From a virus (Duplodnaviria > Heunggongvirae > Uroviricota > Caudoviricetes), in the IMG/VR virus record IMGVR_UViG_2548876945_000011, positions 1-41,326 of that record: a stretch of 41,326 nt of DNA; one strand, 5' to 3'. Every line of letters starts with the position of its first letter. The stretch's first letter is position 1. Below, in pieces: positions 12,060 through 17,126 of this stretch. Under the pieces are notes generated by a model. The model worked only from the letters and a program-made list of their open reading frames with translations, ran no database searches and had not been told where the DNA came from. A program made the position numbers and the translations under genes.

Positions 12060-12228
12060 TTTTGGTTCAACTAAATACAACGTCAGTTTTGAAGAATGGC
12101 ATGAACTGTTAATGGACTATGCAGAGTTACGCGGTGGAAGTGCCGCTGATGCTGAAGCATGGCGTGATGACTACGAAGCAGGAAAAACTCCGGTCGAAGC
12201 ATATTGTGATGAGTGGGGCGATGAATGA
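12052..12228 (+). CDS. Small acidic protein
   Basis: 58 aa from MADFGSTKYNV... with 16 D/E against 4 K/R; GGAGGAAG RBS; start overlaps the previous gene's end. Confidence 0.45.
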   Translation: MADFGSTKYNVSFEEWHELLMDYAELRGGSAADAEAWRDDYEAGKTPVEAYCDEWGDE

Positions 12229-12439
12229 GCGAGATTAATTATCAGGAAGGACATGATTTCGTTATGCTTGATGGAGGGCGCTATATATTTTCCTCGCACC
12301 TGTGATAAAAATGATGAGCCGAGACTGTATTTACGGGACGCTGAGAGAATACCATAGAAAAGCTTATCTAACTTAAGTAGAATTGCTGCGGGTGCTTGAG
12401 GCTATCTGCCTCAGGCATGAACACCAAAGGCAGATAGAG

Positions 12440-13480: not shown

Positions 13481-13770
13481 TGGTGGATTTACGTAAAGCG
13501 GCGCGGGGCCAGATGTGCCAGGTCAGAATCCCTGGCTACTGCAATCACAATCCCGAAACGTCTGTGCTGGCGCATTACCGACTGGCGGGAACGTGCGGAA
13601 CGGCGATAAAGCCACACGATATGCAGGCAGCGATTGCCTGTAGCTCGTGCCACGATTTAATCGACGGGCGGGTAAAAACCAGCGATTACACCAAAGAAGA
13701 ATTACGCCTGATGCACGCAGAAGGTGTTTTTCGCACACAAGAAATCTGGAGAAAGGAAGGTTATTTATGA
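13480..13770 (+). CDS. ybcO: YbcO-like putative nuclease (DUF1364)
   Basis: 96-aa ORF with conserved Cys pattern (CQVRIPGYCN...CSSCHD); resembles DLP12 YbcO as I remember it. Confidence 0.65.
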   Translation: MVDLRKAARGQMCQVRIPGYCNHNPETSVLAHYRLAGTCGTAIKPHDMQAAIACSSCHDLIDGRVKTSDYTKEELRLMHAEGVFRTQEIWRKEGYL

Positions 13771-14321
13771 TTTACCCAACGAATACAGGAAAAAGCGGAG
13801 AACACCTTCGTCTCACCACGCTGGAAAGTGTCTGGATTCAGGGAAAACTGCGTATGTGGGGGCGCTGGTCGTATATTGGTGGCGGTAAGACGGGGAATAT
13901 GTTCAACCAGTTGTTGACCTCTAAAAAGCTGACAAAAACGGAAATTAACGAGGCGCTCCGCAGGATGAAAAAAGCAGGTCTGGACAAACCTGAACTTGAG
14001 GCTTTTTTGCGGGGTATGATTAACGGCAAGCAAAAGAGCTGGCTGGCACATTGTACCGATTCAGAGGCATTAATAATCGACAGGGTTATTGGCGAAGTAC
14101 TGGCAGAACACCCAGGATTGATTTGTATCCTCCAGCAACGATATGAAGGGAGTGGGATGACTAAGCGAAAAATGGCTGAATTGCTGAATGATTCACACCC
14201 TGAGTGGTGTTACGCCACGTGCCGTAATCGCATAGATGCGTGGTTGAAAATGGCAGAGTTTATGCTCTATCTGCCGATGCGTGATGCATTCTCTTCCGGG
14301 GATTTAAAAACTGTCTGTTGA
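13767..14321 (+). CDS. Putative late antiterminator (Q-like)
   Basis: 184-aa ORF coupled to ybcO by an ATGA overlap; a promoter-plus-terminator pair follows directly; assignment by position and weak motif resemblance only. Confidence 0.4.
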   Translation: MIYPTNTGKSGEHLRLTTLESVWIQGKLRMWGRWSYIGGGKTGNMFNQLLTSKKLTKTEINEALRRMKKAGLDKPELEAFLRGMINGKQKSWLAHCTDSEALIIDRVIGEVLAEHPGLICILQQRYEGSGMTKRKMAELLNDSHPEWCYATCRNRIDAWLKMAEFMLYLPMRDAFSSGDLKTVC

Positions 14322-14347
14322 CTCAATCTGTTATCCGGGGCTATATT
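14318..14347 (+). promoter_or_regulatory. Candidate late promoter (PR'-like)
   Basis: TTGACT overlapping the Q-like stop codon, 18-bp spacer, TATATT. Confidence 0.35.
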
Positions 14348-14407
14348 TCCGAAGCGCCAGCAAAATCTGGCGTCGGGATTGGAACCCCGGATATCGAAAC
14401 GGTGCAT

Positions 14408-14427
14408 ACCGCGCTGGCGGTTTTTTT
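14408..14427 (+). terminator. Candidate tR'-like terminator
   Basis: ACCGC-GCTG-GCGGT hairpin followed by T7, about 60 nt downstream of the candidate late promoter. Confidence 0.4.
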
Positions 14428-14590
14428 ATGCGCTAAGCACAGTCACATTCGCGATTTATGGCGGGCTGTGTGGGGGCACCGAAAGGTGCACCGGATGTTT
14501 CGACCGGTAGTTCCAACCCTGCACAGTTCGCCACCCGATGATTGGAACCTGAAGGTGGTGAGGTAAAAATTATCGAAACGCGAGGTCGTT

Positions 14591-15154
14591 ATGACTGTTC
14601 AAGTTGCTGTCAAAAACCTTTCCCCTGTCACTTATAACCAGATTCCTGTAATCACAACTGAGTTACTCGCCCGCCTTTACGGAACAGAAGCAATCCGTAT
14701 ACAGCAGAATCACCATAAAAATAAATCTCGATTTATTGAGGGAAAACACTTCTTTAAAGCTGTTGGTGATGAGCTCAAAAATTTGCGACTAGTTTTAAAC
14801 GAGTCGCAAAATGAGGTGAAAATTTCTCCAAAAACCCGCTCCCTCATCCTCTGGACAGAACGCGGCGCAGCCCGCCACGCAAAAATGCTCGAAACCGATC
14901 AGGCGTGGGATGTGTTCGAAAGACTGGAAGACTGCTATTTCAGACAAAAGGATCCGTCAGCGCCAGTTTCATGCCAGAAAAGTTACGACACGCGAGTTCT
15001 CTGTTATCAGCGAGGCGGTGTCACTGTTTCCACAATTCAGTTGCGGGATGATGATATTGTTATTTCCCTTGAGTCATGGCTGGAACTGGCGAGAGCCAAT
15101 GGTTGGTTTGTTGTTCGCAGAGATAAACTGGTGGAAAGGCTGATGCAGCTTTAA
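14591..15154 (+). CDS. ORF6N-domain protein (antirepressor-like N-terminal domain)
   Basis: 187 aa; motifs NKSRFIEGKHFF and LILWTERGAARHAKMLETDQAWDVFERLE match my memory of the ORF6N family. Confidence 0.65.
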   Translation: MTVQVAVKNLSPVTYNQIPVITTELLARLYGTEAIRIQQNHHKNKSRFIEGKHFFKAVGDELKNLRLVLNESQNEVKISPKTRSLILWTERGAARHAKMLETDQAWDVFERLEDCYFRQKDPSAPVSCQKSYDTRVLCYQRGGVTVSTIQLRDDDIVISLESWLELARANGWFVVRRDKLVERLMQL

Positions 15155-15244
15155 AAAAGTTCTTGCAATTTTAGCCATAAACTGCTTCAATCCCAGTACG
15201 CTTCGCAAAGCTGTATCGCGAGGCGAACCAAGCGCATGAACTTT

Positions 15245-15283
15245 ACCAGAACCCGCCATTGAGCGGGTTTTGTTGTTTCTGGT
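15245..15283 (+). terminator. Intrinsic terminator after the ORF6N gene
   Basis: CCCGC-CATTGA-GCGGG hairpin with outer ACCAGAA/TTCTGGT pairing, followed by TTTTGTTGTTT. Confidence 0.55.
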
Positions 15284-15387
15284 ACTGGCGAACCTGATGT
15301 TTCATTTCTGAAGCGCGATTCCTGGCGGAATACCTAGAATCGAGACATTCTGGTAAAATTGTGTTCAGTACAGGATGTGGAGGTGAG

Positions 15388-15957
15388 ATGAGAGAACTAC
15401 CTAAAGTTTATTTTTTAGGAGTAGATGATGAGCTCGTCGATTATCTTGAAAAACAAGGGGAAGAGACGATACGAGAGATTCATCTTTCTAACAAAACCAA
15501 TGTTGAGAATGGATACAAACTTCTGAACATTCAGATTGTTGGAATTGGCTCATCTTTTTTATTGCTGACACAGAAAACTAATTTCGATTTTCTCACCGCC
15601 GGAATTACCACATTTACATTACTATGGACATGGTGCGCCATTTACTTGGTATGTACTGGTTTATCTGTGAAGGTTAGGGGCCTGATCAATGCCCCTCCTG
15701 ATCATCTATATCATGAAAAATATAAGGATATGGAGCCCTCGAGCTTTAAAATATTCGCTGATGCAGGATATTTAGGACCTGATAAGTTATTGCCGCTTAT
15801 ACGAAGGTATCGCCTTGTTGACTTGAGTGATACAGCAAGAGAGTTACTGTTGGAAAATGAGAAAATCCGCACGAGTCTCGATAAAGCAAGGATGTATACC
15901 ATCCTTGCTCCGGTAGCGGCGATGTTTATCTCGGCTGTTTTTTTATATGTTCAATGA
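15388..15957 (+). CDS. Hypothetical membrane protein (cargo gene between late promoter and lysis cassette)
   Basis: 189 aa from MRELPKVYFLG...; GGAGGTG RBS; about three predicted hydrophobic helices; visibly AT-rich relative to flanking genes. Confidence 0.55.
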   Translation: MRELPKVYFLGVDDELVDYLEKQGEETIREIHLSNKTNVENGYKLLNIQIVGIGSSFLLLTQKTNFDFLTAGITTFTLLWTWCAIYLVCTGLSVKVRGLINAPPDHLYHEKYKDMEPSSFKIFADAGYLGPDKLLPLIRRYRLVDLSDTARELLLENEKIRTSLDKARMYTILAPVAAMFISAVFLYVQ

Positions 15958-16087
15958 CTGAGTCGGCAGAATCTCCAACAAAAACACGACGTGTAGCAAA
16001 GTCTGCAGTACTTTGTGTTGGAGTTGGTTTTGGTGCCACGGGTTGCTGAGGTTTATTTTCACCTTGTGGCTTGTTTTTTTCAGACAT
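15926..16087 (-). CDS. Small proline-rich hypothetical protein, convergent with the membrane protein gene
   Basis: 53 aa (MSEKNKPQGENKPQQPVAPKPTPTQ...) with AGAGGA RBS 5 nt upstream; 3' ends of the two genes overlap by about 30 nt. Confidence 0.4.
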   Translation of the reverse strand: MSEKNKPQGENKPQQPVAPKPTPTQSTADFATRRVFVGDSADSVIEHIKKQPR

Positions 16088-16181
16088 AAAAATCCTCTTT
16101 GTTTGAATTGTTACTTTTGGCGATTTAACGATATCAAACACGAGTATATACCGCCAGAAGCTTAATCTGGCACTCCATCTG

Positions 16182-16206
16182 GCCCCGGCATGTCCCGGGG
16201 CTTTTT
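16182..16206 (+). terminator. Intrinsic terminator upstream of the holin gene
   Basis: 7-bp GC stem GCCCCGG/CCGGGGC with 6-nt loop, followed by TTTTT. Confidence 0.6.
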
Positions 16207-16304
16207 CGTTGTTAGGCTCCGGAAACATCCTCGACTTCTTGTTAGCAAGACTGAGAGCCTGAATCTTACACTTAGCACCATCCGAACTCTCGGAGGTGAG
16301 GCTT

Positions 16305-16646
16305 ATGAAAATGCACAATGCCCCTCATTCCTGGCCTGACTTACTGGAACTCTTACAAAGTTGGTGGCGTGGAGATACGCCGCTGGGCGCAGTGGTTATG
16401 TCAATTATTATGGCTGGTTTGCGCATTGCCTATTTTGGCGGTGGCGGCGGCTGGAAACGAAAAACGCTTGAGATTCTGCTTTGTGGTGCTCTGACGCTGA
16501 CCTTTGCATCCGCGCTTGAGTATGTCGGATGGCCTAAATCACTTTCTGTTGCCATTGGTGGTGGGGTGGGGCTGATTGGTGTTGATGCTATTCGTGGTGC
16601 GGCAATGAGGGTCATCGGTAACAAGTTCGGTGCCCATAAGGAGTAA
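16305..16646 (+). CDS. Holin, lambda S family, with dual-start motif
   Basis: Begins M-K-M (ATG AAA ATG) after GGAGGTGAGG; S-like hydrophobic architecture; immediately precedes the endolysin. Confidence 0.8.
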   Translation: MKMHNAPHSWPDLLELLQSWWRGDTPLGAVVMSIIMAGLRIAYFGGGGGWKRKTLEILLCGALTLTFASALEYVGWPKSLSVAIGGGVGLIGVDAIRGAAMRVIGNKFGAHKE

Positions 16647-16649
16647 TTA

Positions 16650-17126
16650 ATGCAGACACTTAATTCCCAGCGTAAAGCTTTCCTTGATATGGTGGCATGG
16701 TCAGAAGGAACGGATAACGGGCGACAACCGACACGTAACCACGGTTATGATGTTATTGTTGGTGGCGAACTGTTCACTGATTACTCCGATCACCCTCGCA
16801 AACTTGTCACGCTAAATCCGAAACTCAAATCAACAGCCGCCGGACGTTACCAGCTTCTTTCACGCTGGTGGGATGCCTACCGCAAGCAACTTGGTCTGAA
16901 AGATTTTTCTCCAGAAAGCCAGGATGCTGTAGCGCTGCAGCAGATTAAAGAGCGTGGCGCTTTACCGATGATTGACCGCGGCGATATTCGTCAGGCAATC
17001 GACCGTTGCAGCAATATCTGGGCGTCGTTACCTGGTGCAGGTTACGGTCAGTATGAACATAGAATCGGTGACCTGATTTCCCGATTTAAAGAAGCTGGTG
17101 GGGTGGTAAATGAAGCTGAGATATAA
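16650..17126 (+). CDS. Endolysin, lambda R-like lytic transglycosylase
   Basis: 158 aa with long stretches matching lambda R as I remember it (NQRKAFLDM.AWSEGTDNGRQ.TRNHGYDVIVGGELFTDYSDHPRKLV...). Confidence 0.9.
   Translation: MQTLNSQRKAFLDMVAWSEGTDNGRQPTRNHGYDVIVGGELFTDYSDHPRKLVTLNPKLKSTAAGRYQLLSRWWDAYRKQLGLKDFSPESQDAVALQQIKERGALPMIDRGDIRQAIDRCSNIWASLPGAGYGQYEHRIGDLISRFKEAGGVVNEAEI

Follow-up and report, generated by a model that had tools for sequence, protein, structure and literature searches.

What is a short two-gene segment doing between the antiterminator and the lysis genes of a lambdoid prophage, and does it belong to lysis at all? We addressed this question in a stretch of 41,326 nt (IMG/VR virus record IMGVR_UViG_2548876945_000011, positions 1 to 41,326; hereafter the window, whose numbering is used unless another locus is named), which is a lambdoid Escherichia coli prophage. 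A sequence-only reading of this DNA had pointed to an AT-rich insert containing a gene for a 189-aa protein (15388-15957, + strand; the large gene) and a convergent gene for a 53-aa proline-rich protein (15926-16087, - strand; the small gene). Both open reading frames (ORFs) are present, and both are under purifying selection. Temperate phages and related mobile elements carry the two genes as an autonomous accessory cassette (moron), here the segment from ~15282 to 16290; the pair moves as a unit among cargo slots and is not tied to lysis. With regard to its function, the best reading, which we hold tentatively and at slightly less than even confidence, is that of a membrane effector with a small cytoplasmic partner acting in exclusion or abortive infection, as inferred from genomic context.

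The two genes are convergent and their 3' ends overlap by 32 nt (15926-15957), close to the ~30 nt estimated beforehand. The ribosome-binding sites, which had been described as good, read GGAGG for the large gene and GAGG for the small gene. From 100 collected loci, we took the sequence that follows each large gene. In 98 of the 99 full-length loci it contains a convergent ORF of 47-64 aa, whose overlap with the 3' end of the large gene is 19-34 nt; the single exception results from a one-base change in a run of seven T residues (T7). Conservation of the gene pair across prophages, a check that the sequence-only reading had proposed, was thereby borne out.

The linkage extends to remote homologues of the large protein (16-28% identity), in which a small ORF was found beside six of the seven genes with readable flanks. 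In these six loci (L104, L105, L108, L109, L110 and L115) the ORF is short, convergent and proline-rich. The one in L104 reads MSESKKNSNENKRPQAPQ...VFLDSAE, and those of Burkholderia (L110) and Paraburkholderia (L115) share M(V/T)TSN(N/D)KPA..PRPNPQPVYR..DGF; antisense proline-rich ORFs may arise by chance in high-GC genomes, and the Burkholderia cases depend on this common N-terminal motif. A proline-rich ORF of 50 aa in L112 is less clearly homologous, and the small ORF of L116 is ambiguous. The MSExNKP start and the C-terminal motif of the small protein are still recognisable where the large proteins share just 27% identity. The pair consists of real, co-inherited genes and is far more than a chance pair of ORFs. 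Two families of 'hypothetical' proteins of unknown function, PHROG 11870 (matched by the large protein over its full length, 2.4e-107) and PHROG 14506 (matched by the small protein, 6e-33), are now joined in one unit with defined boundaries and candidate promoters.

The ratio of nonsynonymous to synonymous substitutions (dN/dS; Nei-Gojobori method) is 0.10 for the large gene, indicating purifying selection. For the non-overlapping part of the small gene it is 0.19 in the gene's own frame, with 0 stops in 50 non-redundant copies, whereas the other five frames of this region all contain 44-167 stops; four of them show dN/dS values of 1.0-1.7, and the antisense frame with coinciding third positions gives 0.39. 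The small protein is hydrophilic and P/Q/K-rich (7 Pro, 5 Gln and 6 Lys). Its conserved N-terminus, MS(E/Q)xNKP..E.KPQ, is followed by a P/Q/K-rich middle part, by the C-terminal motif DFxxxRxxVG(D/N)SA(D/E) and by a basic tail; the VGDSA portion lies outside the overlap with the large gene. Neither a signal peptide nor a hydrophobic segment was found in the small protein, which looks disordered and would be cytoplasmic. A profile search with it returned 55 clusters, with the same taxonomic spread as those of the large protein and with no annotation.

Annotation pipelines disagree on the start of the small gene (53, 71, 100 or 130 aa), PGAP/RefSeq giving 71 aa from an upstream GTG (15926-16141, - strand). 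We rejected the 71-aa start, since the added stretch shows no conservation at the protein level and contains stops in other loci; conservation, these stops and the ribosome-binding site agree in pointing to the form of 53 aa from position 16087. The T7 run (A7 in the sense of the gene) lies at 16074-16080, in codons 3-5. Its T6 allele, a frameshift, occurs in two IMG/VR contigs (L031 and L042) and in none of 228 complete E. coli genomes. Given this absence, phase variation at the run was rejected, and the two frameshifted contigs are probably sequencing errors.

Candidate signals for two separate transcription units were found in the cassette (Table 1). Most aligned loci have, ahead of the large gene, a terminator whose tail is likewise rich in T, and then a conserved ...ATTCAGGTAAAAT element. 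The hexamer TA[AGT][AGC]AT was present in 33 of 39 distinct upstream sequences, and in 31 of these it lies 34-41 nt before the ATG; as a control, shuffled 60-mers contained it at any position in 19%. Upstream of the small gene, a 28-nt block recurs in 33 of 42 distinct upstream sequences, and its conservation exceeds that of the neighbouring coding sequence. This block is probably the promoter of the small gene, with TTGATA as -35 and TAACAA as -10 element; a clade residing in tail modules (see below) has a different sequence at this place. In two loci (L013 and L014) the stem of the conserved hairpin that lies beyond the block is GCCGC/GCGGC; RNAalifold made no call for this hairpin. For the downstream terminator, RNAalifold gave 8 pairs with compensatory changes in 6, across 16 loci. 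Since this + strand terminator lies beyond the small gene, the mRNA of the large gene would run antisense across the whole small gene. The terminator scan gave none on the - strand, so the transcript of the small gene probably runs into the large gene. The arrangement suggests that the two transcription units are made to interfere with one another. No known RNA was detected by Rfam within the cassette.

The limits of the cassette were set by comparison. In relatives lacking it, homology ends at ~15281 and resumes at ~16265-16291, at the holin; the boundaries of ~15282 and 16290 follow from this shared sequence just outside. The sequence-only reading had described the segment as bracketed by terminators, as AT-rich relative to its surroundings, and as lying between an ORF6N gene and a holin, and in these respects it was accurate: hairpins were found on both sides, each on the + strand, the G+C content is 0.39 in the large gene and 0.41 in the small gene compared with 0.495 in the 5-kb flanks, and both neighbours were recovered. 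In most loci the cassette is 4-14 points lower in G+C than its flanks. The late promoter, which had been taken as a border, was misplaced: it probably lies further upstream, in the isrK unit (14318-14427), and the cassette has promoter-like elements of its own. The cassette thus shows what is expected of a moron: its own promoter-like elements and terminators (candidate signals read from the sequence), variable presence among relatives and a base composition unlike that of the flanks.

Table 1. Coordinates of the cassette, its candidate signals and its neighbours in the window.
Feature	Position	Strand	Remarks
Large ORF	15388-15957	+	189 aa; ATG 4 bases after GGAGG (15379-15383)
Small ORF	15926-16087	-	53 aa; GAGG is the complement of 16094-16097
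Upstream intrinsic terminator	15247-15272	+	Stem-loop, T-rich tail to ~15281; terminator scan; left edge of the variable cargo segment
Candidate large-gene promoter element, TGgTAAAAT (extended -10 type)	15351-15359	+	34 nt 5' of the ATG
Conserved 28-nt block, TTGATATCGTTAAATCGCCAAAAGTAAC on the - strand	16110-16137	-	Upstream of the small gene; alignment of 30 diverse loci
Conserved hairpin, GCCAGA-loop-TCTGGC	16153-16171	+	Between the 28-nt block and the downstream terminator; alignments
Downstream intrinsic terminator	16181-16207 (hairpin 16181-16202)	+	Beyond the small gene; terminator scan
DUF1133/Q-type antiterminator gene	13767-14321
ORF6N (antirepressor-like) gene	14591-15154		Pfam 2e-20
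Holin S gene, lambda family	16305-16646		1.9e-27
GH24 endolysin gene	16650-17126
Rz/Rz1 genes	3' of the GH24 endolysin gene

The position of the pair in other genomes argues against a tie to lysis. Loci with the pair in the Q-to-holin slot have antiterminators of four unrelated families upstream of it (DUF1133, PF03589, PF06530 and PF06323) and several types of holin and endolysin downstream. Using tblastn with a limited query set, we found Q upstream and lysis genes downstream in 52 of the 75 loci with 2.5-kb flanks. Pfam scans of the remaining 23 resolved six more, three of them in the Q-to-holin slot (L018, L060 and L076) and three elsewhere (L016, L070 and L091). The pair stands after a Mom-like gene in L016, and in a seventh locus, L059, a methylase gene is upstream of it, outside any recognised slot. 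In L070 (5332-10942) and L091 (5091-9173) it separates the tail assembly chaperone gene from that of the tape measure, and Rha/ORF11CD3 and Bro-N/P22_AR_C genes are its neighbours; the large proteins of this Enterobacterales clade are ~52-57% identical to that of the window. The sequence-only reading had regarded the Q-to-lysis interval as a slot for cargo, and many loci are indeed found there, but the slot is not specific to the cassette. Its further proposal, a discrete cargo insert and not lysis machinery, agrees with the varied slots and with the absence of the cassette from relatives.

Among the remote loci, L104 carries the pair directly downstream of cI, with the small gene starting 16 nt after cI on the same strand, which is the position of rexAB in lambda. 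The same early region is found in L105, where the pair has the opposite orientation and a ribbon-helix-helix gene is upstream of the small gene. In L108 it again follows cI, and an HSDR_N protein and a weak SLATT-like protein are encoded alongside. The pair lies within the tail module of a Burkholderia myovirus prophage in L110, and 4.5 kb from BilD (1.8e-153) in L115. The large-protein homologue of L116 immediately adjoins the two-transmembrane (2TM) effector (1e-47) and the cyclase (1e-77) of a cyclic-oligonucleotide-based anti-phage signalling system (CBASS). An apparently chromosomal site, adjoining a lasso-peptide cluster, is occupied in L112. It should be noted that L116 (863-8002) is a satellite-like element, with a D5_N/DUF5906 primase, an S78 prohead protease and a major capsid protein, and that its CBASS genes are on the opposite strand, the cyclase being N-terminally shortened. 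Overall, the large protein is encoded in only 5 of 50,697 deposited phage genomes, and the cassette is present in 223-228 of 5426 complete E. coli genomes (~4%), from many hosts.

The homologues of the 189-aa protein form 104 clusters at 90% identity, nearly all of 189 aa and every one named 'hypothetical'. Their hosts are Escherichia, Klebsiella, Citrobacter, Serratia, Yersinia, Pantoea, Morganella, Providencia, Proteus and Salmonella. An exhaustive profile search gave 102 representatives (50% clustering), all of ~160-200 aa, with more members in Burkholderia and Paraburkholderia. The AlphaFold2 model (pLDDT 83.5, 41-sequence alignment) contains long helices at residues 14-62, 68-92 and 134-188, and short helices at 104-125. 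About three hydrophobic helices had been claimed; by hydropathy two are clear (~76-94 and 170-188), and a third (~49-61) is weaker, Gly/Ser-rich and short (~13 residues, IVGIGSSFLLL). The first 46 residues are acidic (10 D/E versus 6 K/R), and the segment 93-166 contains 13 K/R. Model and hydropathy predict an inner-membrane protein; a membrane-acting protein had previously been suggested. With three membrane helices, the N-terminal ~45 residues and a segment of ~70 residues would be cytoplasmic and the C-terminus outside. Invariant residues concentrate in the juxtamembrane region and helix 1 (N38, E40, G42, K44, L45, L46, G52, G54, S55, F57, L60 and Q62); W80, A84, P104, L107, Y108, R140 and N157 are invariant as well.

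Shortened forms of the large gene are also on record. In one chromosome, that of Leclercia adecarboxylata NCTC13032 (L018 6003-6572), it is apparently split into P0116 (96 aa) and P0125 (89 aa) beside an intact small gene. Products of 104-130 aa have been deposited for E. marmotae, C. freundii and K. pneumoniae.

Neither protein could be assigned to a family of known function. No match was found for either in Pfam or NCBIfam, nothing significant in a profile search of Protein Data Bank sequences, and none in BFVD, in keeping with the earlier description of the large protein as uncharacterised, for which profile checks against Pfam and defence models had been suggested. The statement that neither is a holin, antiholin or spanin also stands: Pfam and PHROG gave no match to these lysis families, and the obligate linkage to lysis that would mark such proteins is contradicted by the presence of the pair in non-lysis slots. 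The large protein of the window gave no match to Pfam PycTM (PF18967) or SLATT at E<=1, nor to SieB (PF14163). A Pfam scan of 71 remote representatives revealed no consistent family, and neither PycTM nor SLATT at E<=0.01. No nucleotide-sensing domain is fused to the large protein, and no cyclase, SMODS or SLOG partner was seen next to the pair in the window or in a set of other loci inspected. Weak matches to PycTM, SLATT and 8xMP were rejected as evidence of membership; all fall under the curated cut-offs.

Both the slots (beside cI, in tail modules and in a satellite hotspot) and the neighbours (CBASS, BilD and HSDR_N) point to conflict between phages, and the most likely role of the cassette is therefore superinfection exclusion or abortive infection. 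Exclusion or conversion cargo had been put forward from the window alone; the context of the pair beside cI, in tail modules, beside CBASS and near BilD supports that proposal, but it is from this context that we infer the function.

Several observations weigh against this assignment. The evidence from defence neighbours consists of three remote loci, with no enrichment statistic. Within the Q-to-holin slot, the large gene invariably points in the direction of late transcription, which fits a role in the phage's own late cycle too. Neither protein matched any of the 5027 models of PADLOC-DB v2.0.0 at E<=10, and the matches to known effectors came from single remote members and were sub-threshold (PycTM, 16.1 versus 27.2 bits; SLATT_3, 12.9 versus 26.3 bits); that to 8xMP, again from a single remote member, reached 15 bits. 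When the family profile was compared by hhalign, the probabilities were 0.2% for lambda SieB, 0.3% for RexB, and <1% for both the Cap15-like effector of CBASS and the SLATT-like neighbour. The consensus promoter scan called neither of the proposed cassette promoters, and the shortness of hydrophobic helix 1 makes the topology uncertain. A full-text search by one protein accession and by peptide strings returned no paper on this family.

If the cassette does act in exclusion or abortive infection, it could operate as follows. In the lysogen, both genes would be expressed at a low level, and the small protein, through its C-terminal DFxxxRxxVGDSAD/E motif, would keep the membrane protein inactive or serve as a sensor. 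Convergent transcription and full antisense complementarity would render the expression of the two genes mutually antagonistic. The balance might be tipped by infection with another phage, by shut-off of host transcription together with decay of a labile small protein, or, in the Q-S slot, by the surge of Q-antiterminated late transcription on the + strand. The membrane protein would then act on the inner membrane, and competing phages would be excluded or abortively infected.

It is also possible, if rather doubtful, that the pair represents an undescribed class: a two-component membrane-acting exclusion or abortive-infection system, in which a three-helix effector is gated by a disordered, proline-rich micro-protein and by convergent, mutually antisense transcription, and which is spread across temperate phages and satellites of Gamma- and Betaproteobacteria. 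The convergent, overlapping pairing of a three-helix membrane protein with a micro-protein under selection was not found in the databases and full-text papers searched, and literature searches on 8xMP, prophage defence and morons turned up nothing on this family. A role of the cassette in exclusion or abortive infection would mean that a compact defence system of ~0.9 kb, present in ~4% of complete E. coli genomes and in many other Enterobacterales, is missed by current detection tools. Its unusual design, with micro-protein and membrane protein on opposite, overlapping strands, would also make it a tractable model for the gating of a membrane effector by convergent transcription and by small disordered proteins.

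The strict linkage of the two genes would likewise be expected of a toxin-antitoxin (TA)-like addiction module that stabilises the prophage, with the membrane protein as toxin, the labile small protein and the antisense overlap as antidote, and no dedicated anti-phage role. The small protein is disordered and therefore probably labile, and the convergent antisense layout recalls type I systems. Furthermore, truncated or split large genes stand beside intact small genes (P0116 plus P0125 in Leclercia, and forms of 128 aa and 120 aa on many contigs), and 0 frameshifted small genes were seen among the 228 complete E. coli genomes. We nevertheless consider this explanation unlikely, since the layout differs from the usual co-transcribed, autoregulated operon and no DNA-binding domain is present; the pair forms neither a co-directional bicistronic operon (types II and IV) nor a peptide toxin with an RNA antitoxin (type I). 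Moreover, many prophage TA systems also act in abortive infection, so that this explanation overlaps with the exclusion or abortive infection favoured here.

Lysogenic-conversion cargo that alters host physiology (envelope, stress tolerance or colonisation) and is unrelated to phage-phage conflict seems improbable as well, given that no signal peptide, enzyme domain or feature of a surface protein is present, that the small partner is predicted to be cytoplasmic and disordered, and that the remote members reside in defence hotspots and not in virulence islands. The moron anatomy, the AT-rich composition and the occurrence in ~4% of complete E. coli genomes from many hosts would all suit such cargo, and the Q-S slot also holds stx and other conversion genes.

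A third explanation places the cassette in the late cycle of its own phage. Its genes would be the first to be transcribed once Q-dependent antitermination sets in; the membrane protein would adjust holin triggering, ready the membrane, or keep the producing cell from being infected again, and the small protein would be its timer or inhibitor. The complete S-R-Rz set already present in the window, downstream of the cassette, speaks against this, as does the lack of resemblance to holin, antiholin or spanin families. Most related phages with the same holin have no cassette, and the five phage records mentioned above are the only ones that have it. The other locations of the pair count against it as well: next to cI in either orientation, in tail modules, downstream of Mom or methylase genes, in an element that resembles a satellite, and at sites that seem to be chromosomal. 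Such a role would fit a predicted membrane protein whose gene, in most loci (52 of 75 by tblastn, and more by Pfam), occupies the Q-to-holin slot and is there always read in the direction of late transcription, so that Q-modified read-through would raise the large gene and silence the convergent small gene; all in all, we regard it as quite improbable.

Lastly, one might suppose that the 53-aa ORF is no gene, that what functions is merely the terminator region or an antisense RNA, and that the large gene acts unaided. This might be suggested by its shortness and low complexity, by the discordant starts and by the nearby conserved non-coding block and hairpins, but an untranslated ORF is essentially excluded, judging from the sequence, by the in-frame selection and lack of stops, by the VGDSA motif conserved outside the overlap, and by both motifs persisting beside large proteins of 27% identity.

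As for the surroundings of the cassette, an E. coli chromosome (L001) is identical to the window over the 1141-nt query (15160-16300), and its annotation agrees, including the 189-aa PGAP call. In the annotation of L001, the type I toxin gene hokD is found at 1007-1162 (~12166-12321 of the window if collinear), ~3 kb upstream of the cassette, and is followed by DUF1367 and DUF1364 genes, which is a Qin-like early-right arrangement.

Directly 3' of the Q gene, a promoter-like site (14318-14347) and a terminator (14400-14421) coincide with Rfam matches to isrK (14354-14427, 72 bits) and to the c4 a1b1 target element (14341-14393); a C4 antisense RNA (14454-14538, 73 bits) follows, and the ORF6N gene is next. 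The gene order of the Gifsy-1 locus is antQ-isrK-orf45-anrP (PMC4825925), and the arrangement at 14318-14585 plus the ORF6N gene matches it. The ORF6N gene is therefore probably an AnrP-like antirepressor gene under RNA control of the IsrK/C4 type, and the isrK unit (14318-14427) probably comprises the late promoter of this phage and a short leader RNA. A second promoter-like site, TTGCAA-17 nt-TTCAAT (15163-15191), lies between the ORF6N gene and the cassette and is paired with the terminator at 15247-15272. In phage vB_EcoS-473R12, which has no ORF6N gene, segment 15163-15281 stands directly 3' of the Q gene, so it looks like a second short transcription unit of the pR'-tR' type. It also appears to occupy the position of isrJ in Gifsy-1; isrJ itself was not matched by Rfam in the window.

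Among known systems, lambda RexAB, SieB and a group of 2TM effectors (Pycsar, CBASS and SLATT) are functionally the closest analogues of the cassette, although every membership test that we ran was negative. Like RexA and RexB, the pair is a two-gene prophage module with a predicted polytopic inner-membrane protein and a cytoplasmic partner, and L104 carries it in the rexAB position. In contrast, rexA and rexB point the same way and share a transcript with cI, whereas the genes of the cassette are convergent and overlapping; RexA is a folded protein of 279 aa and the cassette partner a 53-aa peptide that looks disordered. The cassette has no sequence relationship to the lambda system.

SieB is likewise a prophage-expressed membrane protein of similar size (184 aa in lambda), and lambda sieB is opposite in strand to the neighbouring operon and abuts N tail-to-tail. 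P22 SieB is reportedly modulated by the sas antisense RNA and the Esc product, as Ranade and Poteete are said to have described in 1993. SieB differs in that it has no separate conserved small-protein partner, and there is no homology. Like PycTM, SLATT and Cap15, the large protein starts with a predicted helical segment and continues with two hydrophobic helices; there is a precomputed PycTM match for a remote member (the L105 locus), and a CBASS operon stands beside one member. It departs from them by a third hydrophobic helix and a ~70-aa insert predicted to be cytoplasmic, and by the lack of a nucleotide-sensing domain and of a cyclase partner.

Type I TA systems such as hok/sok resemble the cassette in their overlapping convergent units, with one RNA fully antisense to the other, and in their membrane-targeted product. 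However, a type I toxin is a peptide of ~50 aa and its antitoxin a non-coding RNA, whereas the cassette has a membrane protein of 189 aa and, on the other strand, a protein-coding gene under selection. Finally, the lambdoid morons (HK97 gp15, lambda bor and lom, and stx in the Q-S slot) share with the cassette a promoter-like element and terminator of their own, an AT-rich composition, variable presence and a classic cargo slot. The cassette differs from them as a two-gene convergent unit with conserved internal regulatory DNA and no homology to any named moron, and it offers a clean example of a moron that moves whole between the Q-S slot, cI-adjacent sites, the tail module and a satellite hotspot.

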